Assembly: GCA_003650815.1 (NCBI GenBank)
Contig: QMSB01000001.1
Span: 13,374 to 77,373 of the forward strand
From: Thermoprotei archaeon
GTDB taxonomy: Archaea > Thermoproteota > Thermoprotei > Thermofilales > B15-G2
Reading direction: 5' to 3'
DNA length: 64,000 nucleotides
Position numbers and translations under genes: made by a program. Shown in pieces: positions 1 through 47,258 of this stretch. Positions within the stretch are counted from its first letter, which is position 1. The number at the start of each line of letters is the position of its first letter. The notes under the pieces were generated by a model. The model had not been told where the DNA came from, did no database searches, and worked only from the letters and a program-made list of their open reading frames with translations.

Positions 1-198
1 CGCTACTTGACATATGCCGCAGATCCTGCTAGCTATCCTAGGAGCTTCCTCGATAGGTCTACCTTCAAGAATTTTTTCGAAGCCTCTGAATTCAAGTACT
101 TTGAATTTTGCTTCTTTAACTGCACCATCCTCAGAAAGCTTTAAAACAACTTTAGCGTGTCCCTCAACTCTCGTGAAAGGACTAATCACTACCTTCAT
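1..198 (-). CDS. mvhA: [NiFe] hydrogenase large subunit, N-terminal fragment (MvhA/VhuA-like); runs off the window start
   Basis: Not in the ORF track because it is open at the window edge. My minus-strand translation from the ATG at 198 is [66 protein letters not shown]. It contains the N-terminal RxCGxC nickel-site motif of [NiFe] large subunits. The start overlaps the stop of the small-subunit gene. Confidence 0.75.
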
Positions 199-1063
199 CT
201 TTCTCCATCCTCTTCAGTATCTCAGGAGTATAAGGTATAGTAGACGAAGGTAGAGTAAATCTATAAAAGTAGCCTAGGGGGTCAGGTATTTTGCGCACTA
301 ATTCCTCTTCATCAATCTTAGAGAATACGCTGGCTATAGATGAAAGCAGTCTTTCTCCCTGATCTACGATCTTAGCAGGAGGTCCTCGGCATCCTCTGCA
401 GGGTACTCCTCGCGAGGGACACTGTGCTTCACATCCGCTGGCAGTGGCTATACCCATGCAGAGAATACCCTGCTCCAGAAAACATCGAGAGAAGTCTACA
501 TCATCTCTTTCTCCGAGTCTATAAACATTCTCCTCGTATACGTCTCTCTTCTTTAACGAGCACTCGTCGCACACAGTTCTCGAGGGAGGCTTAGGAAGAG
601 GCTTCTTCTCATCAACACAGACTAACAGTTCAATGAGAAGCTTATACGGAGGAGGGCATCCAGGTAGCCTGTAGTCTACTTGAACATACTCGCTTACGGG
701 AGCAGCAGCTCTCGTGAGTTTAGGAACTTCTCTGGGATAAGTTCCATAAATTTCTCTCAAGAGCTCAGCTACAACGTAGACATTAGCTAAACCCGGTATC
801 CCGCCGAAGGAGGCGCAGCTTCCTAGAGCAACGAGTAGCTTGCTTTTGTTCCTAGCTTCTCGTAGGACTTCTATGTCGTGTTTCGTTCTAACAGCTCCGC
901 TGACGAGTGATAAGTCTATGTTAGATGGGAGCTTATCAATATCTGCTATTAGAGTAGAGTACACTATCTCTATGCGCGGTAGCACTTCAGAAATTACATC
1001 AGCAAGAGCTACCTCACATCCCGAGCAGTAACCAGAAAGACTCACTAAAGCTAATCTAATCAT
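182..1063 (-). CDS. mvhG: [NiFe] hydrogenase small subunit, F420-non-reducing (MvhG-like)
   Basis: 293 aa. The N-terminus reads [19 protein letters not shown] and the C-terminus has Cys clusters ([32 protein letters not shown]) typical of small-subunit Fe-S ligands. It sits between mvhD and the large subunit with overlapping stops and starts. Confidence 0.75.
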
Positions 1064-1493
1064 GCTCCTCTACCCCCAGCTCACTTATTTTACGGAATTT
1101 GGGAAGAGAGCCCATTTCCTCGAGTTCACGAGTGAACTCGAAAACTACCTTTGCGAACTTATCTCCTTCGGAAGCAGAGATCCACTCTAGCCTAACTCTA
1201 GAGTCTTCTATACCTAGCTGAGATAGCAGTTTCTTAAGTAAAGCTACTCTAGCCCTCGCTTTAAAGTTTCCACTTATGAAGTGACAGTCATAGGGTATAT
1301 GACACCCCGTGAAGAGCACTCCATCAAATCCTTCTCTCAGAGCCTCTAACGCGAAAAGAGCTTCCTCTCTACCAGAGCATATGAGTCTGACAATGTATGC
1401 TGAGGGAGGATACTGGATCTTAGAGACTCCAGCCATATCTGCTCCGGCATAACTGCAGTAAGTACAGGTAAGCACAAGAATCTTAGGCTTCAT
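1056..1493 (-). CDS. mvhD: Methyl-viologen-reducing hydrogenase delta subunit (MvhD/FlpD family)
   Basis: 145 aa. Family-typical motifs are present: CTYCSYAGADMAG, RLICSGR, GFDGVLFTGCHIPYDCHFISGN and WISASEG. Confidence 0.88.
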   Translation of the reverse strand: MKPKILVLTCTYCSYAGADMAGVSKIQYPPSAYIVRLICSGREEALFALEALREGFDGVLFTGCHIPYDCHFISGNFKARARVALLKKLLSQLGIEDSRVRLEWISASEGDKFAKVVFEFTRELEEMGSLPKFRKISELGVEEHD

Positions 1494-1497
1494 AATC

Positions 1498-3453
1498 TCA
1501 CCTAGCTAAAGCCTTAATCATAGCTAAAACCTGTTCTCTAGTAAAGTGTGCTTGCTCTATAGCGCCTGAGGGGCAGGCAGCTGCACATGAACCACAGCCC
1601 TTACAAAGAGCAGTATTAACTTTCGCTACTCTCCTGTCGTTTTTCTCTACTATTTCTATGGCATTGAACTCACACACACTAACACATATGCCGCAGCCAC
1701 TGCAGGTTTCTTCGTCTACGGATACTACGTAGGGTACTGACTCTACGTAACCTTTAGCCAGTAACTCGACTGCTTTCATAGCGGCTGAAGATGCCTGAGC
1801 CACTGTATCTGGGATGTCTTTAGGGGACTGAGCACAGCCGCATATGAAGACTCCTTCAATAGAGGTTTCAACAGGTCTCAGTTTGGGGTGTACTTCTAAG
1901 AAGAAGCCGTCTGTACTCTTAGAGAGCTTGAGTACGTCTCTTATTTTCTCTGAAGCGGGATTAGGCACTAGACCCATTTCTAGTACTACTAGATCTACTT
2001 TAAGTACTAGAACTTCGTCTAAAGAGGGGTCATATACGTAGACTCCTAGACATCCTTCAGGAGATCTATGGACTTCAGAGGCGCGCCCCTTAATTAAGAT
2101 GACTCCCTCGGATCTTATTCTCCTATAGAATTCCTCATAGCCTTTACCGAAAGATCTGACGTCGGGAGCTATGACATATATCGTGGCGCCGGGAATGCTG
2201 TGCTTTATGTACCAGGCGTGTTTAAGCGCGTTCATGCAGCCTACTCGACAACAGTAAGGCAGGTTCTTTTCATCACGGGATCCTGTGCACGCTAGTATTG
2301 CTACTCTTTGGGGTTCTTTATTCTTGCCTGGAACCAGTATTTTGCCTCTGGTCGGCCCAAAGGAGCTAGCTAAACGCTCTAACTGGAGTCCAGTAATTAC
2401 TTCAGTAAACATCCCGTAGCCATATTCCGGGACTTTCCTAGGGTCGTATTCTTCATAGCCTGTCGCGACAATTATAGCCCCTACTTCGATTTCTATAATC
2501 TCGTCTTCCTGCTCGTAGTTTATTGCTTTCACAGGACATATTTTCTCGCAGAGCCTACAGACTCCTTTAGTGAAGTAGAGGCAGTGCTCAGTATCTATAA
2601 CTGGGACACGGGGAACAGCCTGCGGGAAAGGCACATATATGCTTTTTCTTTCACCAAGGCCTCTATCGAATTCGCTAGGGACTCTTGTCGGACACTTCTC
2701 CATGCAGAGCAGGCAGCCCGTGCATTTAGTTTCATCGACTTTTCTAGCTTTCTTCAGTATCTTCACTTTAAAGTTTCCCACATATCCTTCTACCTCTATT
2801 ACTTCTGAGTACGTCAAGAGCGTGATATTCGGATGAGTAGCTACTTCGACCATGAGAGGACCTAAAATACATATCGAGCAGTCGAGTGTAGGAAAAGTTT
2901 TATCTAGCTGGGCCATGTGTCCACCGATAGAGGAGTTTTTCTCGACCAAGTATACCTTAAACCCTGCTTTAGCTACATCGAGAGCAGCCGTTATTCCAGC
3001 TACTCCTCCACCTATAACGAGCACTGACTGCTTTACAGATATCTTCTCTACTCGAATCTCCTCCAAGAGTCTAGCTTTAGCTACAGCAGCTTTCACGAGC
3101 CGTATAGCCTTATCTGTCGCTAACTCCTTCTCGTGTTCATGTACCCAAGAACACTGGTCTCTGATATTCGCCATCTCTAAGAAGAAAGGCGACAGACCTG
3201 CTCTCTTAAGGGCTTCCTGAAAAATAGGTTCATGAGTCCTAGGGGAGCACGCTGCGACAACAATTCTATCAAGATTATGTCTCCTTATATCCTCCGCTAT
3301 CAGCCTTTGTCCCTCGCTAGAGCACATAAAGGGATAGTCTTTGCATACAACAACATCCTCTTCTTTCGCTACTTCCCTAACTATTCTCTTTACATCAAGT
3401 ACTCCAGCTATATTTTTCCCACAGTGGCAAACATAGACCCCTACTCTTGGCAC
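1498..3453 (-). CDS. hdrA: Heterodisulfide reductase subunit A-like flavoprotein (HdrA)
   Basis: 651 aa with a GTG start. Features are an N-terminal Cys motif (VYVCHCGKNIAG), an FAD fold (VLVIGGGVAGITAALDVAKAG) and several 4Fe-4S motifs (CTGCLLCMEKCP, CRLCEKICP, CSGCGICVSVCE, CKGCGSCAAACP). Confidence 0.9.
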   Translation of the reverse strand: MPRVGVYVCHCGKNIAGVLDVKRIVREVAKEEDVVVCKDYPFMCSSEGQRLIAEDIRRHNLDRIVVAACSPRTHEPIFQEALKRAGLSPFFLEMANIRDQCSWVHEHEKELATDKAIRLVKAAVAKARLLEEIRVEKISVKQSVLVIGGGVAGITAALDVAKAGFKVYLVEKNSSIGGHMAQLDKTFPTLDCSICILGPLMVEVATHPNITLLTYSEVIEVEGYVGNFKVKILKKARKVDETKCTGCLLCMEKCPTRVPSEFDRGLGERKSIYVPFPQAVPRVPVIDTEHCLYFTKGVCRLCEKICPVKAINYEQEDEIIEIEVGAIIVATGYEEYDPRKVPEYGYGMFTEVITGLQLERLASSFGPTRGKILVPGKNKEPQRVAILACTGSRDEKNLPYCCRVGCMNALKHAWYIKHSIPGATIYVIAPDVRSFGKGYEEFYRRIRSEGVILIKGRASEVHRSPEGCLGVYVYDPSLDEVLVLKVDLVVLEMGLVPNPASEKIRDVLKLSKSTDGFFLEVHPKLRPVETSIEGVFICGCAQSPKDIPDTVAQASSAAMKAVELLAKGYVESVPYVVSVDEETCSGCGICVSVCEFNAIEIVEKNDRRVAKVNTALCKGCGSCAAACPSGAIEQAHFTREQVLAMIKALAR

Positions 3454-4964: not shown

Positions 4965-5060
4965 TTCTGTGTCAATACCTAAAAATCTGTTTATAGGCGA
5001 TTTATTTAAAAATACTTCTCTTTTTGGCAGAAATGATGTAAGGAAAAATGTGCAATAGCA

Positions 5061-5076
5061 GAAAAATATATATACT
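5061..5076 (+). promoter_or_regulatory. TATA-like box upstream of the aromatic-rich ORF cluster
   Basis: AAAATATATATAC is followed by GGAG 7 nt before the ATG at 5107. Confidence 0.3.
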
Positions 5077-5106
5077 TTTTCCTCGAGAGATAACCTGGAG
5101 ATAAGT

Positions 5107-5388
5107 ATGTGGAGTCCAGGCTGGGGTAGAGGCTGGGGTAGAGGAGGCTGGTGGGGTCCTTGGCCAGGAAGAGGACCCTTCAGCTATCTCCCACCCTGGC
5201 AGAGACCAGGCTGGATATTCGGCAGAGGAGCCTGCAGATGGCTATTCCCGTGGATGTTCGGGTACTGGTACTCACCGATGTACTACTACTATCCAGCATA
5301 CTACCCCTACTTCACACCAATGTACTACTGGTATCCATGGTGGATTAGAGGCTACTGGTATCCACCAATATATTACCCCTGGTGGTGA
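5107..5388 (+). CDS. Small Trp/Tyr/Pro/Gly-rich protein with a DUF5320-like GRG/GWG N-terminus
   Basis: 93 aa, of which I counted 17 Trp and 17 Tyr. The N-terminal GWGRGWGRGGWWGPWPGRGP resembles the Gly/Arg-rich head of DUF5320 proteins. A TATA-like box and GGAG lie upstream. The coding status of a low-complexity ORF remains uncertain. Confidence 0.5.
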   Translation: MWSPGWGRGWGRGGWWGPWPGRGPFSYLPPWQRPGWIFGRGACRWLFPWMFGYWYSPMYYYYPAYYPYFTPMYYWYPWWIRGYWYPPIYYPWW

Positions 5389-5394
5389 GATAAC

Positions 5395-5619
5395 ATGTAC
5401 CCGTATTACTACGCTTACCCGAGATACTACTACCCTCTGCCGCCCTTCCCAATGTTTCCAGTAGACCCAATGGCTCTCCTCTACACATGGCCTTATCTAT
5501 GGCTCTGGTACATATCAATGATGTACTACATAGAACTCTACAAAGTAATGATAGATATGTGGAAAAAGTGGGCTGAAACAGCCCTTAGTTCTATGGCTCC
5601 ACCACAGCCAGGAACATAG
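5395..5619 (+). CDS. Small Tyr/Pro/Trp-rich protein
   Basis: 74 aa, starting 7 nt after the previous stop. It begins MYPYYYAYPRYYYPLPPFPMFP and has an amphipathic C-terminus. Confidence 0.45.
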   Translation: MYPYYYAYPRYYYPLPPFPMFPVDPMALLYTWPYLWLWYISMMYYIELYKVMIDMWKKWAETALSSMAPPQPGT

Positions 5620-5700
5620 TAATTTCACCTAATACATTATTTTTGAAAAATATTTTTAGCATATACACAAAATTTATTTTCTTCCTCTAGCAATATATAA

Positions 5701-6054
5701 GTGATTAGTATGCAGCGGGGACGTAGAATGTGGAGATACTGGAGGTACTATCCTCCACTATACTTCATGATGCCTCCTCCGCCTCCAGTCCAGCCCCCCC
5801 AGACCACTCAACAACAGCCAAGTACAACGACCGGTCCTCAGCAGCAGCCAACATACCAGCCCACATACTATCCTCCACCCTACTTCGCATGGCCTCCTAT
5901 GCCGCCGCCAGCATACCCGATGACACCAGAAGAGGAATTAGCGTTTCTCGAAGACTACAAGAAAATGCTCGAAGAAGACCTAGAGGACCTTAAGCAAGAG
6001 CTCGAGAGCGTAGAAGCTAGAATAAGAGAGCTTAGAGAGAAGCTCGGAAAATAG
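5701..6054 (+). CDS. DUF5320-like protein (aromatic/Pro/Gln-rich N-terminal region plus C-terminal coiled coil)
   Basis: 117 aa. The low-complexity region (WRYWRYYPPLYFMMPPPPP...) is followed by EEELAFLEDYKKMLEEDLEDLKQELESVEARIRELREKLGK, which matches the C-terminal coiled-coil layout I recall for DUF5320. The start is GTG at 5701 or ATG at 5710. Confidence 0.6.
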   Translation: MISMQRGRRMWRYWRYYPPLYFMMPPPPPVQPPQTTQQQPSTTTGPQQQPTYQPTYYPPPYFAWPPMPPPAYPMTPEEELAFLEDYKKMLEEDLEDLKQELESVEARIRELREKLGK

Positions 6055-6055
6055 T

Positions 6056-6274
6056 ATGGTGGTGTTCTTGAGTAGTACAACTACAAAGAAGTTTATTTGC
6101 TATGCCTGTGGTCGAGTAATAGAGGTTCCCTACGGAGTACCTAAACCAGTAGCATGTCCTTTCTGCGGTGCACCAGAAGCTATGATCCACAGACTTGATA
6201 AGGGACCTCACAGAAGAGGTAGAGGCAGAGGGGGGCCTCCTTGGCAGAAGAGGCTAAACGAGGAAGAGAAGTAG
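6056..6274 (+). CDS. Small zinc-ribbon protein with a basic RGRGRGG tail
   Basis: 72 aa with CYACG...x17...CPFCG (CxxC-CxxC). The ATG lies 1 nt after the preceding stop. The 3' end overlaps the Mrp ORF. Confidence 0.55.
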   Translation: MVVFLSSTTTKKFICYACGRVIEVPYGVPKPVACPFCGAPEAMIHRLDKGPHRRGRGRGGPPWQKRLNEEEK

Positions 6275-7065
6275 TTGAGGAGATAGAGAGTAAACTCAGT
6301 AAAATAAAGTATAAGCTCATGGTGATAAGCGGGAAAGGAGGAGTCGGGAAAAGTTTCATTACAGCCAACCTGGCAGTAGCTACTGCCTTAATGGGACGCA
6401 AAGTAGCCGTATTTGACGCTGATATCCACGGTCCATCTATTCCCAAAATACTAGGAGTCCATGGTGAGAGATTCCCAGTAACTTCCTCTGGAATAGTACC
6501 AGTTTTAGGTCCTCTAAACATAAAAGTAGTATCTATTGATTTTCTTCTCCCAGGTGAAGATACTCCAGTAATATGGAGAGGACCGCTGAAATTCGCCGCC
6601 ATAAGGGACTTTCTTTCTAAAGTAGAGTGGGGGTTCGCAGACTATCTCTACGTAGATCTCCCACCTGGCACTGGAGATGAACCTCTCTCAGTAGCACAGC
6701 TAGTATCAGGACTGTCGGGAGCCATAGTAGTAACTATTCCCTCAGAACTCAGCCTACTTGTCGTCAAGAAAGCAGTTACTTTTGCTCGCAAAGTAGGAGT
6801 TGACGTAATAGGAGTAATAGAGAATATGAGTGGCTTCACCTGCCCTAACTGCGGCAAAACATTTTTCGTGTTCGGGAAAGGTGCTGGAGAAAAAATAGCA
6901 AAAGACATGGGAGTACACTTCCTAGGATCTATTCCAATAGATCCCAGGATAGCAGAGACCTGTGACCGCGGAGAACCCTTCTTAATAAAGTATCCCGAAT
7001 CTCCCGCAGCTAAGGCTTTAATGAAGATAACTGAAAAAGTCTTAGAAATTGTCGAGTCTAAATAA
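6241..7065 (+). CDS. Mrp/NBP35/ApbC-family Fe-S cluster carrier ATPase
   Basis: 274 aa with the deviant Walker A SGKGGVGKS, the family-typical CPNCG motif and IENMSGF. An alternative start at 6319 (MVISGKGG) would remove the overlap with the zinc-ribbon ORF. Confidence 0.9.
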   Translation: MAEEAKRGREVVEEIESKLSKIKYKLMVISGKGGVGKSFITANLAVATALMGRKVAVFDADIHGPSIPKILGVHGERFPVTSSGIVPVLGPLNIKVVSIDFLLPGEDTPVIWRGPLKFAAIRDFLSKVEWGFADYLYVDLPPGTGDEPLSVAQLVSGLSGAIVVTIPSELSLLVVKKAVTFARKVGVDVIGVIENMSGFTCPNCGKTFFVFGKGAGEKIAKDMGVHFLGSIPIDPRIAETCDRGEPFLIKYPESPAAKALMKITEKVLEIVESK

Positions 7066-7159: not shown

Positions 7160-7498
7160 ATGTGGTGCTGGCGACACGGACGAAGAGGTCCCGGTAGACC
7201 TATGAAACCCCGCTTCATATCAACTTACCTCAGGGGAGTAAAGTTTGTCCCCGTAAGAGAAGACGGCACATTCATTGAAGCACCTCCCATAGTGCTACTA
7301 CCAGATGAACTAGAAGCCTTCAAGCTCGTCTACCTAGAGGGTCTTTCTCAAGAAGAAGCAGCACGCAGAATGGGGGTTTCGAGAGGAACTCTCTGGAGAT
7401 GCCTCAGTAGCGCTAGGAGAAAAATAGCTAGAATGCTCGTCGAAATGAGACCACTAGTGGTAGCATGGGGAGAAGAATATGGGGAACTTCTTAGATAG
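7160..7498 (+). CDS. DUF134/UPF0251-family predicted DNA-binding protein (sigma-70 region-4-like HTH)
   Basis: 112 aa. GRPMKPRFIS...FVP...LLPDELEAFKLVYLEGLSQEEAARRMGVSRGTLWRCLSSARRKIARMLVE matches the DUF134 layout. Confidence 0.75.
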   Translation: MWCWRHGRRGPGRPMKPRFISTYLRGVKFVPVREDGTFIEAPPIVLLPDELEAFKLVYLEGLSQEEAARRMGVSRGTLWRCLSSARRKIARMLVEMRPLVVAWGEEYGELLR

Positions 7499-8810
7499 CG
7501 TAGAGTGGGAAATACTAGTAAAACTAGTCATAGCCTTCGCGACAGGCGCGCTCATAGGCACTGAAAGAGAGAAAGCTAGACTTGAAAGAAAAGACGAAAA
7601 CTTAGCAGACTTCCCAGGTGTCAGAAGCTTTGGATTAATGAGCATCCTAGGAGCTCTCTCCATATGCCTAACTAAGTTCTTCCCAGAAGCCGTGACCCTC
7701 ATAGTACTTGGCTCTATGCTAACCATATCAATATTAATCCTAGCGAGCTTCACTCTCTACAGAGTCTACTACGCTAAAGAACACGGAATAACTACACCAA
7801 TAGCTCTAGCACTAGCATACCTTCTAGGAGTACTCGTTGGAGCAGGACTCCTCCTAGAAGCAGTAGCCACATCTATCTTCGTGACATTCATTCTAGCAAT
7901 CAAGCTAACAGTAGAGAGAGCTTTAAGAGGAATAACGTACAAAGAGCTACTCTCAGCTCTCCAAATAGGCATAATGGTTTTTCTACTGGGACCCTTCGTT
8001 TTAAACCAGGACCTGACGGACCCTATATTTCATTTAGTTAGCTTTAGAACACTATACATATTTTTCGTAGCTATTTTATGCATCTCATACCTTAGCTACA
8101 TGGTACTAAAGCTAAGGAGCAGCAGTGGTCTAGAAATAGTGTCGTTTTTCGGGGGACTCGTAAACAGTGAAGCTACCACAGTCTCATTCACACGACTATG
8201 CTTCAAATCCTCACTTGAAAACATAACACCAGTAGTCTCTAGAGGCGTAATAGTAGCTAACTTAGCTATGATCTCAAGAAACTTCTTCCTAGTCCTCCTC
8301 TTCTTCTCCCTACTGAAGAGAGGAACACCAGACATATGGTACTTCTCCTTCCTAGCCTTCACTACCTCACTCCTTACTGGATACGCGACAATAGCTCTAG
8401 TCTCCCCTAAGAAAAGCAGAGTCAAGCTAGAAGACATGCTAGAATCCCCACTAAGTTACAGAATAGCGTTTAAAGCATGTATAGTCTTCCTCGTAGTCCT
8501 AACAGCTACAGCTCTAGCAGTAAAGCACCTAGGAGAAGTAGGAGTTCTAGCCGTAGGAGGAATAGGCGGAATAGCTAGCACAACAGCCGTAATATTCACA
8601 ATACTATCACTCATAGAAAGAGGCAGCATTGAAGTATCCGCAGGACTAGCAGCCATACTGCTCTCTACAGCAACCGCCGTTCTAAACAAGTTCCTCTACT
8701 TAAAAGCACTTAAAGCTCCTCGAGTACTCTTTAAAGACCTAGGATGGCGACTAGTATTTACATCAATACCACTGTTCCTCTCTAGCATTCTCCTACTTTA
8801 TGCTCTTTAA
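7479..8810 (+). CDS. MgtC/SapB-like N-terminal domain plus DUF4010-type polytopic membrane protein
   Basis: 443 aa and strongly hydrophobic. The N-terminal GALIGTERE...FPGVRSFGLMSILGA matches the MgtC/DUF4010 signature. Confidence 0.6.
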   Translation: MGNFLDSVEWEILVKLVIAFATGALIGTEREKARLERKDENLADFPGVRSFGLMSILGALSICLTKFFPEAVTLIVLGSMLTISILILASFTLYRVYYAKEHGITTPIALALAYLLGVLVGAGLLLEAVATSIFVTFILAIKLTVERALRGITYKELLSALQIGIMVFLLGPFVLNQDLTDPIFHLVSFRTLYIFFVAILCISYLSYMVLKLRSSSGLEIVSFFGGLVNSEATTVSFTRLCFKSSLENITPVVSRGVIVANLAMISRNFFLVLLFFSLLKRGTPDIWYFSFLAFTTSLLTGYATIALVSPKKSRVKLEDMLESPLSYRIAFKACIVFLVVLTATALAVKHLGEVGVLAVGGIGGIASTTAVIFTILSLIERGSIEVSAGLAAILLSTATAVLNKFLYLKALKAPRVLFKDLGWRLVFTSIPLFLSSILLLYAL

Positions 8811-38333: not shown

Positions 38334-40300
38334 AGACAATACTAAGGTTCATTAGCCGCAAGGATCTAAGGGATTACGCGTTAGCTATATTTATATCAGT
38401 GATATTCTCATCTCTGTCGACTAGAATAGTATGTATTAGAAGTACTGGTTTTGGACTAATGTTACCCATATACTTGAATTCCATAGCAATTTTTCTAATA
38501 CTATTATTGGCATACTTCTCTGATGTTCTTTCGAAAGCGGGTTTCAGACCTAGTATCGAAGAAATAGCCTACACGTACCTAGTAGTATATATTTCAACTT
38601 CTGTAGGTGGATTATGGCTTCTTGCAGGGTCTATAGGAAGAGCTCTTTTTCTAGCCTATCAAGAGCCATTTAAGACTATCACTGAGGGTCTCAGGCCGCC
38701 TTTTTGGGCTCCTCCAGCAAAGTGTATAGCTCAGATTCTAACTTCTTCTATTCAGGTAGACTGGTTTCTCTGGATTCTTCCTCTACTCTACTGGTTTATA
38801 CTTTCCCTTACTGCATGTATTCTCTCTATTTCAGCAGCACGTGTTCTAGCACCTATGCTTATAGATCTAGAGGAGATGCCGTTTCCAACAATAGTTTTAT
38901 ACAGAGGTATAAGAGAGTCTATTAAAGAGGAGGATTTTTTACGAAAAGTATTCTTATTTTCTACAGCAATATCATTTTTAATAAACTTACCGACATTAAT
39001 AAGACTAGCTGTACCATGGTTTCCCCTACTACCGTTTCCTCAGGCGTACGGCTATACTATGACTATAGATCTCACAGCTATCAGAGAGCTGAGAGTTTTT
39101 ACTATGCCTAACGCCGTAATAGTACTCTCAGTTAATCCCCTCTGGATAGCTGCCTGTTATCTTTTACCATTAGATACATTGCTTACATGGTGGATAGTCT
39201 ACGTAGTTCTAAACGTAGTCTACCCGCTGATAGCAGTCTACTTAGGACTACTTCCTCCAATGACACCACCTTTCGGCGCGCAGAAAATATGGGTCTTCCA
39301 GAACTTTAAGTATGGTCCTTTAAAACCGTATATTGCTTTCACAGTAGGAGGACTTGCAGCCCTCGGAGTGACAGCTTTCATTAAGCTTCTTATTCTCACT
39401 AAACGGACTGCTAAGAAGTTCTCCTATCTTCTCGTCGCCTCGTGTATAGCGCTAGCAGTCTTCTCCTCTATGAACTACTTAACTCTAAGGTCTCTCTCTT
39501 TATCGCTAGCAACTTCTTTTATAACTTTAACAATGTACCTTGGAGCTCTCTCCCTGCTAGGCGAGAGCTTCATTATACCTGTTATGCTGTCTAGACCGAT
39601 GAATGCTGCTCTAGGCCAGTATCTGAGCGAGTATCTTGCACTTAGCTCTCCAGAGGCTTTCTCACCTCAACACATACTAGGAGTTCTCTTACTAGGCGAA
39701 GCCTCCTACTCTCTTCTTTCCCCAGGAGTGGCGCTTCTCGAGAGTTTCGCTCTCTTAAGGACCAGACCAGCTGTCAAAAAGAGTCCTAGGGAAATTAGAA
39801 GGACTAGAAATAGGCTCGCGAAGCTAGCTATTTTAGTTGTGGCTCTTTCACTCTTCTCTTCCTACTATACAATGATCCTCGTGGCTCATGAGTACAGCAT
39901 AGCTAATTTACCGGGATTGAAGACAATAATATTCGAGTATGGAAAAGCAGAGGCAGATTTTCTAATGAACGCTGCTAAAATCATGGTTGATGAAAATTGG
40001 TGGATAAGCTTCACTATAGGAGCAGTCTCAATAGCTCTGGTCTCTCTTCTACGTCTTAAACTACTAGTATTTCCTCTGTGTCCAGTGGGTCTAGTCTTAT
40101 CAGCTTCCGAGCTATCTCTCTACGGAATGTGGTTCTCTGCTCTCATAGCATACACATTAAAGAGAACAACTCTAGCTCTAGGAGGACTGAAATTATATAT
40201 GAGAGAAGGGCGGGCTATAGCGGCTGGTATCATAGTAGGTTATTCGCTAAGCTACATAGTCGCCTCAGCATTAAGCTATGCTCTCTACTTTATCCACTAA
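38315..40300 (+). CDS. Polytopic membrane protein, possibly OPT-like (module B, partner 2)
   Basis: 661 aa, overlapping the upstream gene by 19 nt. It carries the LEEMPFPT motif and is highly hydrophobic throughout. Confidence 0.78.
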   Translation: MGSPVLKTILRFISRKDLRDYALAIFISVIFSSLSTRIVCIRSTGFGLMLPIYLNSIAIFLILLLAYFSDVLSKAGFRPSIEEIAYTYLVVYISTSVGGLWLLAGSIGRALFLAYQEPFKTITEGLRPPFWAPPAKCIAQILTSSIQVDWFLWILPLLYWFILSLTACILSISAARVLAPMLIDLEEMPFPTIVLYRGIRESIKEEDFLRKVFLFSTAISFLINLPTLIRLAVPWFPLLPFPQAYGYTMTIDLTAIRELRVFTMPNAVIVLSVNPLWIAACYLLPLDTLLTWWIVYVVLNVVYPLIAVYLGLLPPMTPPFGAQKIWVFQNFKYGPLKPYIAFTVGGLAALGVTAFIKLLILTKRTAKKFSYLLVASCIALAVFSSMNYLTLRSLSLSLATSFITLTMYLGALSLLGESFIIPVMLSRPMNAALGQYLSEYLALSSPEAFSPQHILGVLLLGEASYSLLSPGVALLESFALLRTRPAVKKSPREIRRTRNRLAKLAILVVALSLFSSYYTMILVAHEYSIANLPGLKTIIFEYGKAEADFLMNAAKIMVDENWWISFTIGAVSIALVSLLRLKLLVFPLCPVGLVLSASELSLYGMWFSALIAYTLKRTTLALGGLKLYMREGRAIAAGIIVGYSLSYIVASALSYALYFIH

Positions 40301-40380
40301 TAGAACTACTCGACTATAGGGCTCGAAACATTCTTAGGGAATAAAGGCAGAAATAAATACCTGTCCTATGTAGAGTCTCT

Positions 40381-40698
40381 GTGGAAATTCCACAAAAAAT
40401 AGCATCTAGGTTACAGCAGCACGTTAAAAGCGAAGTAATAAATATATGCAAAAAAGCTGGGTTAACGAATGTTGCTTACACTAAAGTAGGTATAGTAGAA
40501 AGAGAAGGAAAATTCTATCTCTATGTTAAATTAAAGCTTTTAGGAAAGATGCCCTACGAGGTCTTAGACAGTATAGCTAAATTGATGAGAGAGAAGTACG
40601 CTAGAAAAATTATGATAGACTCTCCTCATTTACACGCCATAAGGCTGTCTGGAGAAATTAGAAAAGAGGTTTTTAAAGAGTTTAAAAAGCGTGTATAG
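40381..40698 (+). CDS. Hypothetical protein
   Basis: 105 aa with a GTG start. It is Lys/Glu-rich with no motif I recognise. Confidence 0.4.
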   Translation: MEIPQKIASRLQQHVKSEVINICKKAGLTNVAYTKVGIVEREGKFYLYVKLKLLGKMPYEVLDSIAKLMREKYARKIMIDSPHLHAIRLSGEIRKEVFKEFKKRV

Positions 40699-40700
40699 GA

Positions 40701-40850
40701 CTACTTGATATATTTTAGTACTACTTCACTACCTTTAAGTAACACTTGAATTCTTGAACCAGCTTTAAGACCTAACTTAACTCTGATGTCTTTTGGTATC
40801 ACTATGCGTCCTTTAGAGTCCATTTTTACCACATAGACGTCTTCCTCCAT
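40701..40850 (-). CDS. AbrB/SpoVT-type (MazE/VapB-like) DNA-binding domain protein, 49 aa
   Basis: Absent from the ORF track because it is under 60 aa. My translation is MEEDVYVVKMDSKGRIVIPKDIRVKLGLKAGSRIQVLLKGSEVVLKYIK*. GRIVIPKDIR..LGL..G is the SpoVT-AbrB swapped-hairpin signature. Confidence 0.7.
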   Translation of the reverse strand: MEEDVYVVKMDSKGRIVIPKDIRVKLGLKAGSRIQVLLKGSEVVLKYIK

Positions 40851-41149
40851 TTAAATCCCACGCAGTTTAACAAACCTACTAAATATTTTTTCCTATTCTC
40901 TTCATGTAACTATTGCTCTCTAAGCGACTACTTAACTAATACTAGAGCTTTACTCTATCTATAACTTTTAAATAATACCATGAAGTCGTATCTTCATGCT
41001 CAGTAAATGCGTCTGGAGTTAAGTAAAAAAGCAAGCAGCTCAGGATTGTTCATGTAGGTTCACTTCTTAATTACTAGAGATTTCGGCTAATCATACTTCG
41101 AGACAGGCAAGCTTATTACCTAACAGAAACTATTCTATAGGGACACTTA

Positions 41150-43462
41150 ATGAGATTAGAAAGATGTTCAATAGCCTTGTTGCTGCTCATAGTTCTCTCA
41201 CAATTGCTTCTCTGCTTTCCTCAGTCGAGAAAAATAAAGATAGTCTTTATAGATGAGGAGAGCGGAAATCCTGTTAACGGTGTATTCGTAGTTAAAAGAG
41301 GAAGTAAGCTAACTTATGTTAAGACAGGGAGTAAGGGTGAGATAACTGTAGATGAGGGAGCTATAATATATGGTCCAAGAGTATCGAAAAAACCTTACTT
41401 TCCCGTTGAAATCATAGCTATAAAGAATGCTACTATAAAACTAAAACGGGCGTATTTTGTTATACTTAAAAGGTACTTAGCAGTACTTGATCCGGTAAAA
41501 TCTAGTAGAATAGTTATTCCCGTAGGTGTCGTGGAATTTAAAATAAATAACATGTCATTTGGACATGGGAGTTCTGTGAGATACTTAGGGCTCAACTCTT
41601 CTACTGGGCTTGCTCCTCTTAGAGGAGGCTTAATGTCAGTAAAAGTCAAAGACTTTTTCATTAACATAAGTTTACCGAGCTTAGATTGGGGAGAGACTTA
41701 CTTCCTTGATCTTCGTGAAGTGAGTTTAAAGTACAACGAGCTCGCTTTTAATAAGAGCATAAGCTTCATAGAGAAGAAGATAAGTGAATTAGAAAAAGAC
41801 GGCATATACCTAGGTTTCTGCAAAGTATACTTGGAAGAAGTAAAGAAGTCTTTAGCGGAAGCATTACAGAAAAAAGACATAGAGGATATTTTGCTCGAAT
41901 ACGAGAAGAGCTACCTATTGTATACTAGCATTAAAGAACGCTTAAGCTTTTTCGAGGAGAAAAGCAATGAAGTGGTTCCACTGATGTCAATACTAATAGC
42001 TGTTTTAAGCTACTTGATTGCTTCACTATTTTTTGATAAATCATCTAAGAAACTTGTTTTCTACTCGATGCTCTATTATACATTAATATTAAGCCTATTC
42101 ACAGTATATCCTTTCCTAAGAGAAGGAAATCCGTATTTCACAGTATCACCGATGTTCGTTTACTTATTCACATTGATTCCAGCAGTGCTCTCAGATAAAA
42201 TTCCAGACTATTATACACAAGAAGGATTTTCCTTGCTCTCTGGAGCTACTGCATCTCTTTCAATGATATTAAGGAGTGCAAGAAGGAGAAGACTAAGAAC
42301 AGGTTTAACACTCTTTACAGTAGCACTAGTAGCCTTTTCTGTACACACCTTAAACTTAATGACTACGATGTACTGGTCGTTTGAAAAAGAGTTGAAATAC
42401 TCTGTCTCAGTAAAACCTAATACAGTTCTAGTAGTTAAGCCAAAGTACGGAGACTATCCCTACTCTCCTCTTTCAATAGTTTTCATTAGATTGCTTTCAG
42501 AAATAGGTCATACAGAAGCTCTCTGCATTAAAAGAGAGAGTTCTCCTACACTGAAGGAGATAAGGCTTGAGTACAGGGGAAGAGAGACATATGTGTCAGG
42601 CGTTATAAGCTATACTAAAGGAGTCACTAAATTTATTCCATTAGAAAGCATTGTAATGAAAGGACGGCTTCCTGAAGAGGGCCTAGAAGTAATGATAAGC
42701 AATAACATCGCAAACCTACTGAGCATCAATGTAGATAAAAACATTACTATAGGCAAATACACAGCGAAAGTAGTAGGTATTTTTAGGGGGAAAAGTCTAG
42801 ATGATCTAAGAGATCTAGATGGAATGAGCATTACACCCACAGTAGTCATTCGCGAAGGAGGAGCGAAGACTGTTGAAAGGCTGTCTGGTGACTCTATAAT
42901 TATATGTTCTGATGAACTAGCTTCTCTACTCAAAATTCCTCGCTACAAAGTTTACATAAAGCCTAAAGAGAATCCCTTCTTTTACGCAGAGAAAGTAGCT
43001 TTCATATCAGATTCATGCACATATGTGTTTTACAAAAACACTGTGAAGTACTATACGGTAGCACCAGTAATCATAGTTAAAGGAGAAAGCCTAGTAGTTC
43101 CACTAATTATAGCTATACTTACAGTTTTTGTGTCAATTATGGAAAATGTCTATGAGAGGAGAAAAGAAATAGAAATACTATCGTCTTTAGGGCTAAATCC
43201 ATCACATATAGCATACCTATTCTCCCTTGAGGGCATAGTGCTCGGCTACGTGGGCTCTGGTATAGGTCTCTTATCAGGATTTATAGCATTTAAGTTACTT
43301 AATATGAGCAGTGTAGTAATTCCAGTAGACTTTAAGCTGTCAATCTACGAAATACTGTTTACAGTATTTCTAGCAGTTGGGGTCTCTTTACTAGCTGCTC
43401 TCCCACCAGCCCTTAAAGCATCTACATTAGTTACTCCTAGTTTAGAAAGAAGATGGAAGTAG
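41150..43462 (+). CDS. Signal peptide, Ig-like (CarboxypepD_reg-like) head, TM bundle, FtsX/MacB-type permease (module C); ends at an in-frame TAG
   Basis: 770 aa. Head: KIKIVFIDEESGNPVNGVFVVKRGSKLTYVKTGSKGEITV. FtsX TM1: RRRRLRTGLTLFTVALVAFSV. PCD-like domain: NITIGKYTAKVVGIFRGKSLDDLRDLDGMSITPT. FtsX core: ERRKEIEILSSLGLNPSHIAYLFSLEGIVLGYVGSGIGLLSG. It ends in VTPSLERRWK, the same motif found internally in 14887-19362. Confidence 0.85.
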   Translation: MRLERCSIALLLLIVLSQLLLCFPQSRKIKIVFIDEESGNPVNGVFVVKRGSKLTYVKTGSKGEITVDEGAIIYGPRVSKKPYFPVEIIAIKNATIKLKRAYFVILKRYLAVLDPVKSSRIVIPVGVVEFKINNMSFGHGSSVRYLGLNSSTGLAPLRGGLMSVKVKDFFINISLPSLDWGETYFLDLREVSLKYNELAFNKSISFIEKKISELEKDGIYLGFCKVYLEEVKKSLAEALQKKDIEDILLEYEKSYLLYTSIKERLSFFEEKSNEVVPLMSILIAVLSYLIASLFFDKSSKKLVFYSMLYYTLILSLFTVYPFLREGNPYFTVSPMFVYLFTLIPAVLSDKIPDYYTQEGFSLLSGATASLSMILRSARRRRLRTGLTLFTVALVAFSVHTLNLMTTMYWSFEKELKYSVSVKPNTVLVVKPKYGDYPYSPLSIVFIRLLSEIGHTEALCIKRESSPTLKEIRLEYRGRETYVSGVISYTKGVTKFIPLESIVMKGRLPEEGLEVMISNNIANLLSINVDKNITIGKYTAKVVGIFRGKSLDDLRDLDGMSITPTVVIREGGAKTVERLSGDSIIICSDELASLLKIPRYKVYIKPKENPFFYAEKVAFISDSCTYVFYKNTVKYYTVAPVIIVKGESLVVPLIIAILTVFVSIMENVYERRKEIEILSSLGLNPSHIAYLFSLEGIVLGYVGSGIGLLSGFIAFKLLNMSSVVIPVDFKLSIYEILFTVFLAVGVSLLAALPPALKASTLVTPSLERRWK

Positions 43463-43480
43463 AAGGAAACTAAAGAGTTT

Positions 43481-44296
43481 ATGGAGGAAGGAATTACAGA
43501 AAGGCTACCTGTCAGAATACCTTTAGGTAAAAGCAGAGACTTTGTAGACTTCATACTAGGAAGATTTAGAGAATTGAGCTTCGGGCTTACACAAAAAGTA
43601 GAAGTAATGTCTATTGAAGAACTTGGAGACAGAGAATACAGGATATCATTCAAATACTACAGGGGAAGCGACATAAGCTACCAGGCATGTTTCACTGAAA
43701 ATACCCTGGAGGTCTACAAGGTCTCAGAAGACACTTATGGTGTGAAAGTGACATCTAGGCCTGTGACGCAGCATAGTAAGCTTGGTCTATACTATGTACA
43801 TGAAACACTATCCTTCTTAAGAAAAATAGCACTTGAGTGGAGTTCAAGGGCTCTTAGAATAGTAGTAGCGCTAGGCGAAAATCCCTCAACACTATATACT
43901 GTTATAAAACACCTAGACCCCTATGAAGTAATAGTTGTTACTGAAGCAAGAAACTTAAAAACCGTAGAATACGTTAAGAAAGCATTAATGGAAGAAAAGA
44001 GGAGAACTCCCGCTATAAAAACTTACTTAATATCAAGTCTAAAAGACATAGAAAAAGTACTGTCGGAGCTAAGCTATTATATAAGAGAGTCTCAATACAC
44101 AGTAATCAGCTATGATTCAGGGCTTGCTGGAGTACTACTATCCATAGCGTCTAGTGCAGTCCGCAAAAAAATACTTCTATTAACTGATAAGCGTAGCTTA
44201 CGTGAAAAAATAGCGTATCCACTTAAGGAAGCAGAGATCTCCGAAATATCGCCTCTCGAAATAGATAAGATGCTAGAAAAAATTAAGACTGAATAA
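43481..44296 (+). CDS. Detached cytoplasmic tail domain of the module-C permease plus a Rossmann-like (Csa3-N/CARF-like?) domain
   Basis: 271 aa, in the same reading frame as 41150-43462 and separated from it by TAG plus 6 codons. The N-terminal ~120 aa correspond in position to the tail of 14887-19362. The C-terminal half (RIVVALGENPSTLYTVIKHL..EVIVV...VISYDSGLAGVLL) has an alternating beta/alpha pattern. Confidence 0.7.
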   Translation: MEEGITERLPVRIPLGKSRDFVDFILGRFRELSFGLTQKVEVMSIEELGDREYRISFKYYRGSDISYQACFTENTLEVYKVSEDTYGVKVTSRPVTQHSKLGLYYVHETLSFLRKIALEWSSRALRIVVALGENPSTLYTVIKHLDPYEVIVVTEARNLKTVEYVKKALMEEKRRTPAIKTYLISSLKDIEKVLSELSYYIRESQYTVISYDSGLAGVLLSIASSAVRKKILLLTDKRSLREKIAYPLKEAEISEISPLEIDKMLEKIKTE

Positions 44297-44314
44297 CTTT
44301 TATAACAAGGCATT

Positions 44315-44650
44315 GTGTATAGTAATGGTAATATGAGTAGGGAGCTCACTTATATGAAGTTTAAAAGCCTAGAGGACTTGGTAAAACTAATAGTAACTAG
44401 CCAGAGACCACTACTTTTTCACAGCAAGTACGGGGAAAACAAGCATATTTACTATATCTACGGAACAGCTGGTCAGAGGCTAATAATATACTATACGGTA
44501 CTAGAAAAACCAATAGAAAAGAAATATATTTACTATAGCGTACTTGAAGGAAAAATCTCTTTCGGCGACGAGCTTAACAAGGACACAAGGTTCGTCAATA
44601 TACCAGTAATAGAGGTCGAAGATGAAAACATATTAAAGGAAATACTGTAA
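44315..44650 (+). CDS. Hypothetical protein
   Basis: 111 aa. Alternative starts are 44333 and 44354 (MKFKSLEDL). No motif recognised. Confidence 0.45.
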   Translation: MYSNGNMSRELTYMKFKSLEDLVKLIVTSQRPLLFHSKYGENKHIYYIYGTAGQRLIIYYTVLEKPIEKKYIYYSVLEGKISFGDELNKDTRFVNIPVIEVEDENILKEIL

Positions 44651-44654
44651 TTAA

Positions 44655-44715
44655 CACTGAAGTGATGAATATGCAGCCCTCTGAGCGGTGAGGACGTTAC
44701 TAGGGACTGATACCT
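44655..44715 (+). ncRNA. C/D-box sRNA (2'-O-methylation guide)
   Basis: The architecture is canonical. C box GTGATGA (44662-68); 12-nt guide ATATGCAGCCCT; D' CTGA (44681-84); 4-nt spacer; C' TGAGGA (44689-94); 12-nt guide CGTTACTAGGGA; D CTGA (44707-10); then a CTTTTTC T-tract. It is intergenic. Confidence 0.75.
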
Positions 44716-44995
44716 TTTTCAAGCCTACTTCTAAATAATATGCTCTTACTCTGTATTTTCAGCAGATTTTCTTCGATTTTCATAGTCTAAGTCAAAATAC
44801 CTGCTATTTCTACTTTCTCGATTTTACTGAAAATCTTAGGCGATATTCTCTATGTATTTTAGTATCCTAATACCTATGTGAACCATGTTCATAAACTTGC
44901 TAGTAAGAAATACTGGCTATTTAAAAATACTTATGTGAAGACTCTAGTTCTGTTCATGTCTAAAGGCTTAAATTCTCTTTAAGGGAGTTATTTTT

Positions 44996-46045
44996 GTGAA
45001 GCCTTTAAAACTAGGTCTTATTGGAGCCGGAGTAGGAGCAGACTTTGTCGCTAGGGCGGTCTCAGTAATAAAGGAGGAAAATATAGTAGAGCTAGTAGCC
45101 GTAGCTAGTTCACATCCTGAGAGAGCTAAGGCTTTTGCAGAAAAACACGGGATTCCTAATTGGTATTCTGATTACAAAGAGATGTTGAGGAAAGCTGGTA
45201 TAGAGGCTGTAGCGATATGTACTCCTCACTACCTTCACTTCCCTATGGCTATAGATGCTATTGAAGAGGAGCTCCATGTTCTAGTAGACAAACCCATGGC
45301 TATCAGCATCAGAGAAGCAGATGAAATGATCAGAAGGTCGGAGAAGAAGGGAGTAAAACTAGGAGTTATTCTCCAGAGCCGCTTTGACCCCAAGTTTAGG
45401 AAAATGAAAGAACTAATAGACTCCGGTGAACTAGGCAAAATAATTCTCGGCGAAGCTGTAGTCAAATGGCATCGTACTCAAGAATATTACGATAAAAGTG
45501 TTTGGCGTGGACGATGGGCTACAGAAGGCGGAGGAGCTCTGATAAATCAAGCAATACATACAATCGACCTATTAATATGGATGCTCGGTGAACCAGACTA
45601 TCTATGGGCACAAATAGACACAGTAGCACACAACATAGAGGTAGAGGACTTAGCCACAGCAATAATTAGGTTCAAGAATGGAGCACTAGGGGTAATTGAA
45701 GGAAGCACTGCTACTTACCCAGGTTTCCCGACTCGCTTAGAGGTTCATGGAACTGAGGGAGCTATATTAATTGAAGGCGAGACAGTTAAATTTGCTGAAG
45801 CTAAAGGCAAGAAACTAAAAATAGAGGAAGAAAAGACAGGGAAGTTGGCTTCATGGGCTAGACCAGAGCTCGTACCTCCTGAAAACCACGCTAGACTAAT
45901 AAAAGACTTCGCTCTAGCAGTAAGAGAAGACCGTAAACCTTACATAGATGGCTATGAAGGCAAGAGGGCCGTCGAAGTAATATTAGCAATATACGCTTCA
46001 GGAAAGAGAAACGAGCTAATAAGATTCCCCTACAAAGACTACTAA
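44996..46045 (+). CDS. Gfo/Idh/MocA-family NAD(P)-dependent oxidoreductase
   Basis: 349 aa with a GTG start. The N-terminal Rossmann motif is LKLGLIGAGVGADFVARA, followed by CTPHYLH and LVDKPMA. Confidence 0.85.
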   Translation: MKPLKLGLIGAGVGADFVARAVSVIKEENIVELVAVASSHPERAKAFAEKHGIPNWYSDYKEMLRKAGIEAVAICTPHYLHFPMAIDAIEEELHVLVDKPMAISIREADEMIRRSEKKGVKLGVILQSRFDPKFRKMKELIDSGELGKIILGEAVVKWHRTQEYYDKSVWRGRWATEGGGALINQAIHTIDLLIWMLGEPDYLWAQIDTVAHNIEVEDLATAIIRFKNGALGVIEGSTATYPGFPTRLEVHGTEGAILIEGETVKFAEAKGKKLKIEEEKTGKLASWARPELVPPENHARLIKDFALAVREDRKPYIDGYEGKRAVEVILAIYASGKRNELIRFPYKDY

Positions 46046-46173
46046 AGAGCTTCTCTAAATATTATTTTAGCTATTTATTTAATGTTATTAAACATAAAAA
46101 GTATAAATGCATTATATTTTACAGTAATAAAGTTATTTAGTAAATAAAAATTAAATTAAATTTTAAGATTTAC

Positions 46174-46260
46174 TTAAAGGTATTTACCGCAGTTATAGCA
46201 GTACCAGCGTTTATACTGCTCAATCCATGTAGCGGGTTTACCACATGTAGGACAAAATAG
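46174..46260 (-). other. Zinc-ribbon coding segment in the +1 frame relative to the PRC-barrel ORF
   Basis: My translation is LFCPTCGKPATWIEQYKRWYCYNCGKYL* (CxxC-x14-CxxC). This frame has no ATG and is open back to about 46373. Removing one A from the AAGAAAAAG run would join it to the PRC-barrel ORF. Confidence 0.6.
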
Positions 46261-46591
46261 GAGCCTCCTTTTTCTTACCAAATAGTCCAAAACCCTTTTT
46301 CTCTTGAGGAGCTGCAGTTGGCGCTGTTGGAGTAACAGCTGGTGCTGCTGGAGCAGCTGGTGCTGAAGGTATCTCTACCTTTTCTTTCAACAGAATGATA
46401 TCTCCTATTTTAGACACGTTTTCCCACGAGACTTCAATTGTAGCTCCCGTTTTCGCACGTATTATTAAAGTGAACGTTGCTTCGCCTGGAACGAGCCCAA
46501 GATCCACTACGTCTCCGACGTACTCAGCATCGGGGTCGTATACTTTCATACCTATTATTTTTGATCTAGGAATACTTTTTTTCTCGCTCAT
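46238..46591 (-). CDS. PRC-barrel domain protein (apparently truncated by a frameshift before a C-terminal zinc ribbon)
   Basis: 117 aa. The N-terminal IIGMKVYDPDAEYVGDVVDLGLVP...WENVSKIGDIILL is PRC-barrel-like. A Pro/Ala/Thr linker follows, then the ORF stops after KKKEAPILSYMW. Confidence 0.7.
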   Translation of the reverse strand: MSEKKSIPRSKIIGMKVYDPDAEYVGDVVDLGLVPGEATFTLIIRAKTGATIEVSWENVSKIGDIILLKEKVEIPSAPAAPAAPAVTPTAPTAAPQEKKGFGLFGKKKEAPILSYMW

Positions 46592-46653
46592 TTTCCTCGT
46601 AATAACTTATGAAAGCGTAGAATTTAAACTTATTGAATTTAATATGTATACTG

Positions 46654-47256: not shown

Positions 47257-47258
47257 TG

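Follow-up and report, generated by a model that had tools for sequence, protein, structure and literature searches.

Three small open reading frames (ORFs A, B, and C) between positions 5,107 and 6,054 of a 64-kb stretch of Thermoprotei archaeon contig QMSB01000001.1 (the window, 64,000 nucleotides in all) are genuine genes under purifying selection in the frames in which they were called, and profile comparison identifies A and C as halves, carried on separate genes, of one archaeal DUF5320-type protein. Together with a fourth small gene, D, and with adjacent genes for an Mrp-type ATPase and a DUF134 protein, they may form an iron-sulfur (Fe-S) storage and trafficking system in which A and C would provide a modular, disordered scaffold. 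We give this reading about an even chance, its mechanism being one that we infer from genomic context and domain fusions. The host is a hyperthermophilic Thermoprotei metagenome-assembled genome (MAG) with a reverse gyrase gene downstream of the cluster. The three ORFs are as follows.

5107..5388, + strand: ORF A, 93 aa, N-terminal-half type of archaeal DUF5320, with GWGRG repeats, an invariant core, and a Tyr/Trp/Pro tail ending in WW
5395..5619, + strand: ORF B, 74 aa, orphan family with a disordered Tyr/Pro N-terminus, a DP motif, and one long helix
5710..6054, + strand: ORF C, 114 aa from its likely ATG at 5710, aligning to PF17253 at 25.9 bits (threshold 27), with a Trp/Arg N-terminus, poly-Pro, a Gln/Thr/Pro/Tyr linker, and a coiled coil

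The evidence that these are genes comes largely from a sister species, L087, whose cysteinyl-tRNA synthetase (CysRS) is 85% identical to that of the window. A, B, C, and D are all intact in L087, their frames unchanged and every indel comprising whole codons. Frame +0 is the sole stop-free frame of the six in both species and also shows the highest identity; each alternative frame, the opposite strand included, is broken by stops in L087, in the window, or (for most) in both, and its identity is lower. Nei-Gojobori proportions of nonsynonymous (pN) and synonymous (pS) differences between the window and L087 are 0.188 and 0.549 for A, 0.188 and 0.669 for B, 0.209 and 0.792 for C, and 0.152 and 0.562 for D, compared with 0.090 and 0.857 for CysRS and 0.145 and 0.766 for Mrp, the flanking genes. 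The single open frame in both species, pN far below pS, the in-frame indels, 284 relatives in other genomes, and the invariant core columns described below thus establish A, B, and C as real. An initial annotation of the sequence had taken the ORFs not to be accidental and had proposed conservation of frame in related genomes as the check. That view is upheld, as is the 6-nt gap reported between A and B (5389-5394), and the alternative-frame ORFs at 5151-5348 and 5730-5993 are shadows that are not conserved in the sister species. Nine metagenome contigs carry exact copies of A with identical gene order. Gene calling in L087 missed both A (L087 5720-5994, where a 34-aa alternative-frame ORF was called) and D (L087 6672-6869), each of which is intact, and small low-complexity genes of the A family are probably under-annotated in databases.

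ORF A contains 17 Trp, 17 Tyr, 5 Phe, 16 Pro, 14 Gly, 7 Arg, and one Cys, with no Lys, Asp, Glu, or His, for an aromatic share of 42% of its 93 residues and an isoelectric point (pI) of 9.6. The Trp and Tyr counts given initially are reproduced, and the aromatic runs quoted with them are present. Background composition, taken from the long ORFs of the window (1.2% Trp, 4.5% Tyr), predicts ~1 Trp and ~4 Tyr per 93 residues. The chain opens with GWGRG repeats at residues 5-13, followed by an invariant core at residues 17-46 that holds the GRGAC motif (residues 39-43) and the single Cys, Cys43. In an alignment of 30 members, from which the invariant columns were read, the core follows GWGRG-type repeats and is nearly invariant as GPWPGRGPFSYLPPWQRPGW[LI][FY]GRGAC[WR]WL. 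The motif GPWPGRGPFSYLPPWQRPGW-GRGAC, spanning ~32 residues, is present in 284 archaeal species genomes; these 284 genomic relatives come from Thermoproteota, Bathyarchaeia, Hadarchaeota, Nitrososphaeria, Korarchaeota, Methanomethylicota, a few Thermococci, and two bacterial MAGs, and the protein collection holds 206 homologues. Beyond the core, the Tyr/Pro/Trp tail is kept across the family in composition and not in sequence. The tails of 56 unfused A-type proteins average 24.7% Tyr, 19.6% Pro, and 15.0% Trp, and an aromatic residue stands at the C-terminus in 49 of them, with a terminal WW in 24. The extreme composition of ORF A is therefore a family trait rather than an accident of one sequence. 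AlphaFold2 (AF2) predicts disorder throughout A (predicted local distance difference test, pLDDT, 49), even when given the 30-sequence alignment. Searched alone, A has no match in Pfam or NCBIfam, and a profile of A finds no meaningful match in the PDB. The terminal codons of A (TGG TGG TGA; window 5380-5397, L087 5986-6003) spell GGTGGTGA, which contains a Shine-Dalgarno-like GGTGA. This GGTGA sits 7-8 nt ahead of the ATG of B and is kept in L087, so two constraints may act on the terminal WW, one from the protein and one from translational coupling to B.

The assignment of C to DUF5320 is direct, and that of A comes through its relatives. Residues 63-103 of C align to positions 58-98 of the DUF5320 model (PF17253) with a score of 25.9 bits, somewhat short of the gathering threshold (27 bits), and relatives in which the A core is fused to a coiled coil on one chain score 27.3-32.3 bits over model positions 12-99. 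Because the full-length relatives of A span positions 12-99 of the model, whose C-terminal part also aligns with the C coiled coil, A and C read as two halves of one protein. The one-chain DUF5320 arrangement, a G/R-rich N-terminus with a GRGxC-type motif plus a coiled coil, is divided in the window: GRGAC lies on A, which lacks a coiled coil, and the coiled coil lies on C, such that only the A + C pair carries the C-terminal coiled-coil feature. Two architectures occur beyond the core in the A family, a Tyr/Pro/Trp tail without a coiled coil or a linker with a C-terminal coiled coil. Among the 70 loci with a clean core ORF of an A homologue, neighbors being counted up to 3 kb from that homologue, a fused single chain is found in 9 and an unfused A with a separate C-like gene in 45. 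The order and strand of the genes vary among loci (A-B-C, C-A, or an oppositely oriented C), so A and C are independent genes that selection holds together. The DUF5320 lead in the initial annotation was thus well placed; the division of the family between A and C, the separate orphan status of B, and the kind of neighborhood described below had escaped it.

Genes resembling C are present in 67 loci. ORF C itself opens at a GTG at 5701 and ends at 6054, and gene callers choose a start at 5728. L087 has ATA at the equivalent of 5728 and is conserved from the equivalent of 5710 onward, which makes the ATG at 5710 the likely true start. The extent of 5701-6054 given originally is correct for the open frame, and the coiled coil is indeed clean and heptad-like, with the coding sequence itself likely beginning nine nucleotides later. 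Behind the Trp/Arg-rich N-terminus, the N-terminal parts of 35 C-type proteins average 28.5% Pro, 13.9% Gln, and 13.7% Tyr. Gln is usually avoided in hyperthermophiles. In the C-family linkers (window 5770-5850; homologues L018-L066) it reaches 13.9% against a background of 1.3%, 10 times as much, in hyperthermophilic hosts.

ORF B is a separate, Thermoproteota-restricted orphan family with one helix, inserted after unfused A genes. It begins MYPYYYAYPRYYYPLPPFPMFP, as initially quoted, and contains 14 Tyr, 12 Pro, and 8 Met. AF2 predicts a disordered Tyr/Pro N-terminus followed by an aromatic/Met-rich helix at residues 25-67, the core of which has pLDDT >90. B-like genes lie directly behind A in 19 non-identical loci; they adjoin only unfused A (18 of 18, each no more than 1 kb away), exclusively in loci of Thermoproteota type. 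An exhaustive profile search recovered just 14 members among 1.84 billion representatives, a word-indexed search 2 proteins only, and comparison with Pfam, NCBIfam, and the PDB no relative. A membrane protein was considered for B, but a classical transmembrane helix finds no support, as its best 19-residue Kyte-Doolittle mean is ~1.0 against the usual cut-off of ~1.6; its interfacial propensity is high.

The genes that accompany A and C point toward Fe-S chemistry. Three of them follow C in the window.

6056..6274, + strand: ORF D, a CxxC...CxxC zinc ribbon with a GRGRGRGGPPW tail, abutting the C stop codon; precomputed PF27353 (MJ0401) label
6241..7065, + strand: Mrp/NBP35-type Fe-S cluster carrier ATPase, overlapping the end of D; PF10609 at 311 bits
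7160..7498, + strand: DUF134 protein with a sigma-70 region-4-like helix-turn-helix; PF02001 at 68 bits; presumed regulator of the cluster

Counting genes up to 3 kb from the A homologue, we find DUF134 in 47 of the 70 loci, NifX-like genes in 37, and MinD/Mrp genes in 28. Clustering of every ORF in a set of 80 related loci gives a similar tally: DUF134 in 46, NifX-like Nitro_FeMo-Co proteins (PF02579) in 44, and MinD/Mrp-class ATPases in 40, mostly as pairs with a 4Fe-4S ferredoxin insert. Genes for FeoA, FeoB, a DtxR-type repressor, NifU_N, and EncFtn-like proteins also recur. Since each of these neighbor families is rare per genome, the linkage lies far above chance. A role as precursor of a ribosomally synthesized and post-translationally modified peptide was considered and set aside; radical S-adenosylmethionine genes occur in 9 of the 80 loci, a weak linkage next to that of the NifX-like and ATPase genes. 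The NifX-like proteins and MinD/Mrp-class ATPases correspond to members of the ORP (orange protein) complex of Desulfovibrio, which includes the MinD-ferredoxin ATPases Orp3/Orp4, the NifX-like orange protein Orp8, the MrpORP protein Orp9, and Orp5 (PMC6345978). MrpORP, in which Mrp and NifX-like domains are fused, has been shown to transfer Fe-S clusters to partners (PMC6345978). Among NCBIfam models, MrpORP gives the window Mrp its highest score, 342 bits across positions 1-252 of 365; lacking the NifX-like domain, the protein stays under the 450-bit cut-off.

Some neighbors are natural fusions of DUF5320 elements with a NifX-like domain. Five related loci (L072, L043, L078, L071, and L054) encode a chain in which a Trp-rich N-terminus and coiled coil lead through a GYGWGRGRG linker into a NifX-like domain. 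The reverse order is found in L037, L028, L035, and P0198-P0223, the last with precomputed PF17253 and PF02579 labels. The coordinates of representative fusions of a DUF5320-type coiled coil with a NifX-like domain are listed here.

L072:6292-7038
L043:6193-6891
L078:6250-6990
L037:5272-5877
L028:4161-4745

None of the 63 NifX-like neighbors carries the A core fused directly to its NifX-like domain. A Gly/Arg-rich extension is present on 22 of the 63, N-terminal in 16 and C-terminal in 6, and such an extension on a NifX-like protein is the hallmark of IssA. In Pyrococcus furiosus, iron-sulfur storage as thioferrate is assigned to IssA (PF2025, Q8TZG9; PMC5524996). Its tail is disordered, cationic, aromatic, and Gly-rich and holds the only Cys of the protein (PMC5524996); it has been proposed to wrap an anionic (FeS2-)n chain electrostatically, with the aromatic residues stabilizing the assembly (PMC5524996). 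The last 52 residues of the IssA (P0180) tail read PAMYGPVYPPFGWGRGWGKGRGWGRGWGSILGYCPWTGMPSRRALRWYYGWW, and a compositional grammar is common to this tail and ORF A.

Trp/Tyr/Phe: 8/5/1 in the IssA tail (70 aa), 17/17/5 in ORF A (93 aa)
Pro: 11 in the IssA tail, 16 in ORF A
Gly: 15 in the IssA tail, 14 in ORF A
Arg/Lys: 6/1 in the IssA tail, 7/0 in ORF A
Cys: 1 in the IssA tail, 1 in ORF A
Asp + Glu: 0 in the IssA tail, 0 in ORF A
Pattern: GWGRGWGKG in the IssA tail, GWGRGWGRG in ORF A
C-terminus: GWW in the IssA tail, PWW in ORF A

Compared with the composition used to define the IssA family (Vaccaro et al. 2017: pI ≥9, <5 Cys, and ≥20% Gly across the last 40 residues), A agrees in its pI of 9.6 and its one Cys and departs in its last 40 residues, which are rich in Tyr, Trp, and Pro rather than Gly. 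A-family genes adjoin IssA-like genes; in L048, a Thermococcus-like MAG, two A-type genes lie between two IssA-like genes, beside a MinD-ferredoxin pair. The NifX-like neighbor in L020 ends in ...WGRGRCGFGRGYGYSGPYYPYHPPFF, a miniature of A. The RGGPPW motif found in the tail of D occurs among the related loci only in D homologues and in the N-terminal Gly/Arg extensions of NifX-like proteins (L019, L025, and L066).

The initial annotation had offered π-stacking assemblies, condensate-like behavior, and metal/cofactor or nucleic-acid binding as possible functions for these aromatic/Arg/Gly-rich proteins. Metal/cofactor binding fits best among these, given the Fe-S handling indicated by the gene neighborhood and by the domain fusions; π-stacking assemblies and condensate behavior are speculative, and nucleic-acid binding drew no specific support. 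The cluster may be a lineage variant of an anaerobe cluster with DUF134, NifX/IssA-like proteins, MinD-ferredoxin ATPases, and DUF5320, the same kind as the ORP and Pyrococcus IssA clusters. In the Fe-S scaffold that we infer, A would act as an IssA tail in free-standing form, with Arg residues that bind anionic inorganic Fe-S species (thioferrate or clusters) and with aromatic stacking and Cys43 to stabilize the assembly. The C coiled coil, and perhaps the B helix, would multimerize the disordered arms into a multivalent scaffold, to which D might contribute its related RGGPPW tail. Mrp would then move clusters into or out of the scaffold, and DUF134 would control expression of the cluster. 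A stronger form of the proposal, in which A-D would scaffold a multi-component iron-sulfide storage body in Thermoproteota, a modular IssA nanoparticle whose separate, disordered polypeptides (up to 42% aromatic) condense with an Fe-S polymer above 80 °C, seems to us quite unlikely.

Several observations weigh against the Fe-S scaffold. Both the NifX-like gene and the MinD-ferredoxin ATPase pair are absent from the 64-kb window and from the sister locus, and a hidden Markov model built from the 63 NifX-like neighbors has no match in the window. Homology of A to the IssA tail was tried and rejected: BLASTP of A against IssA tails gives no significant alignment, and hhalign of the A family against 14 IssA tails returns a probability of 2%. 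The likeness, which is one of pattern and chemistry, might therefore be convergent or compositional only. The Gly/Arg-rich part is, moreover, N-terminal in A, unlike in IssA. Thioferrate-like iron still forms in Pyrococcus without IssA (PMC8219758), such that the physiological role of the IssA system is itself debated. Lastly, a core of 32 residues that stays invariant across phyla is more in keeping with a defined partner or site than with loose electrostatic wrapping.

That last feature is central to an alternative in which the A core would be a short linear motif for docking on a MinD/ParA/Mrp-class P-loop ATPase and regulating it, the tails and coiled coil serving only to tether or localize it and binding no mineral. 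A core that is invariant yet predicted to be unstructured would suit a docking motif, Mrp is adjacent in the window, and 28 of the 70 loci encode MinD-type ATPases no more than 3 kb away. Small partner proteins stimulate ATPases of the ParA/MinD class, and the Arg-rich N-terminus of A resembles the known basic activator peptides of that class. Many loci with NifX-like genes nevertheless have no ATPase within 3 kb, and docking leaves both the NifX-like fusions and the IssA-like composition unexplained; we regard it as unlikely.

Core invariance would also suit a partner role for the A/C pair beside DUF134, as a co-regulator or sensor, for example a Cys- or Fe-S-dependent anti-activator, making the two a regulatory pair and the DUF5320 proteins no structural component. 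DUF134 is the commonest neighbor (47 of 70 loci), is often divergently transcribed right beside A, and has a sigma-70 region-4-like helix-turn-helix, and the A core has a single invariant Cys. A divergent regulator beside an operon, however, usually just regulates that operon. The fusions, too, join NifX-like domains and not DUF134, and extreme low-complexity tails are atypical for anti-factors, so we consider this arrangement very unlikely.

A further possibility is that these small proteins are generic disordered, self-associating proteins built on an aromatic/Arg/Gln "sticker" grammar, forming a heat-stable condensate or fiber unrelated to Fe-S, with incidental gene linkage. The predicted disorder of A, and the retention of composition without sequence in its tail, are compatible with such a function, and the composition resembles RGG and Tyr/Gln-rich phase-separating regions. 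By general analogy, FUS-like eukaryotic proteins share the combination of Arg/Gly repeats with Tyr/Gln-rich disordered segments; unlike them, the present proteins belong to a hyperthermophile, lack an RNA-binding domain, and show no homology. The linkage to Fe-S genes is strong, extends over several phyla, and is backed by domain fusions, and we consider a generic condensate or fiber very unlikely. Finally, the reading of the ORFs as open by accident in a stretch of odd composition, or of another frame as the true gene, is effectively refuted by stops in all other frames, pN far below pS, and hundreds of homologues with the invariant motif in the called frame, notwithstanding the alternative ORFs in the window and the gene calls in L087 that skipped D and also A, in whose place a 34-aa alternative-frame ORF was chosen.

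The intergenic sequences around A-C contain candidate control elements.

5049..5082, + strand: promoter-like block upstream of A, including a TATA-like AAAAATATATATA at 5062-5074; nearly identical in L087
5637..5645, + strand: T-rich stretch TTATTTTTG after B, read from sequence
5653..5681, + strand: 29-nt block upstream of C, TTTTTAGCATATACACAAAATTTATTTTC; identical in L087

The TATA-like box reported initially ahead of ORF A could be located at 5062-5074, and the block around it would act as a promoter. The block at 5653-5681 is likely a promoter or operator, and the T-rich stretch is a possible archaeal terminator dividing an A-B unit from a C-D-Mrp unit. Both blocks are near-identical in L087 although synonymous sites of the adjacent genes are near saturation. 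Each also holds TAGCA followed by an A/T-rich box, so they may include a shared operator, for example for DUF134. The earlier statement that the ORFs look expressed has these conserved promoter-like blocks as its sole basis. A sigma-70 promoter scan, which is not applicable to an archaeon, returned nothing.

Among the downstream genes, D has weak zinc-ribbon Pfam matches, is kept in L087, and may start at TTG 6068, as in its L087 orthologue. The DUF134 start is ambiguous, at 7160 or, as called on an identical contig, 7202. A gene for an MgtC/DUF4010 membrane protein (7479-8810) overlaps the DUF134 gene by 20 nt; among non-identical loci this pairing is seen only in the sister species (L087-L089), and phmmer matches are exact-copy contigs. 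By precomputed Pfam labels on the identical contig L001, reverse gyrase lies downstream of the cluster, in the minus-strand region from about 8780 onward, and the region upstream of CysRS (window 1-3453, minus strand) encodes an Hdr-like FAD/Fe-S protein, FlpD, and [NiFe]-hydrogenase subunits. GC content is 0.37-0.39 at window 40001-48000 and 0.44-0.45 in the first 22 kb, and the former region may have a different origin.

DUF5320, DUF134, and non-nitrogenase NifX-like proteins constitute one of the most widespread uncharacterized gene clusters of anaerobes, and no functional study of DUF5320, PF17253, DUF134, or COG1149 was found in the literature. DUF5320 itself was already known as a catalogued family; what appears new is its split architecture, orphan B, the extreme aromatic tails, and the connection with the IssA and ORP systems. 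Relating DUF5320 to the IssA tail and to ORP/Mrp provides a first concrete, testable hypothesis for the family, that of a multivalent disordered binder of inorganic Fe-S species. Thioferrate-type storage, so far characterized in one Pyrococcus protein, may accordingly be modular and far wider in Archaea. If the storage-body proposal were true, a mineral-protein condensate based on the RGG/Tyr/Gln "sticker" grammar would exist in a hyperthermophilic archaeon. Regardless of function, the proteins are natural extremes of composition maintained by purifying selection in a hyperthermophile, with Trp + Tyr >35% in A and a 10-fold excess of Gln in the C-family linkers, and the two families offer useful test cases for low-complexity sequence function at high temperature.

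The proteins described here resemble known systems to different extents. With DUF5320 (PF17253; ~100 aa, with a G/R-rich N-terminus and C-terminal coiled coil), they share the coiled coil, core-bearing relatives, and gene neighborhood; unlike it, the window form is split into two genes with B between and has gained low-complexity extremes, Tyr/Trp/Pro in A and Pro/Gln/Tyr in C. With the ORP complex, the neighbor families at the relatives' loci are the same (paired MinD-type ATPases with a 4Fe-4S insert, NifX-like proteins, and Mrp), and the window Mrp scores best against the MrpORP model. The window differs in having Mrp without Orp3/4- and Orp8-like genes and in its regulator, DUF134 in place of a sigma-54 activator; no literature report placing a DUF5320-type protein in an ORP complex was found. 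In contrast to IssA, A is a separate polypeptide, and A, B, and C all lack the NifX-like domain (PF02579/IPR003731). An invariant core, PFSYLPPWQRPGW, is present in A and missing from IssA, and the aromatic residues of A number 39, compared with 14 for the IssA tail. The two nevertheless have in common disorder, a Pro-rich stretch, seven cationic residues, the sequence GWGRGWG[RK]G, and WW at the C-terminus.

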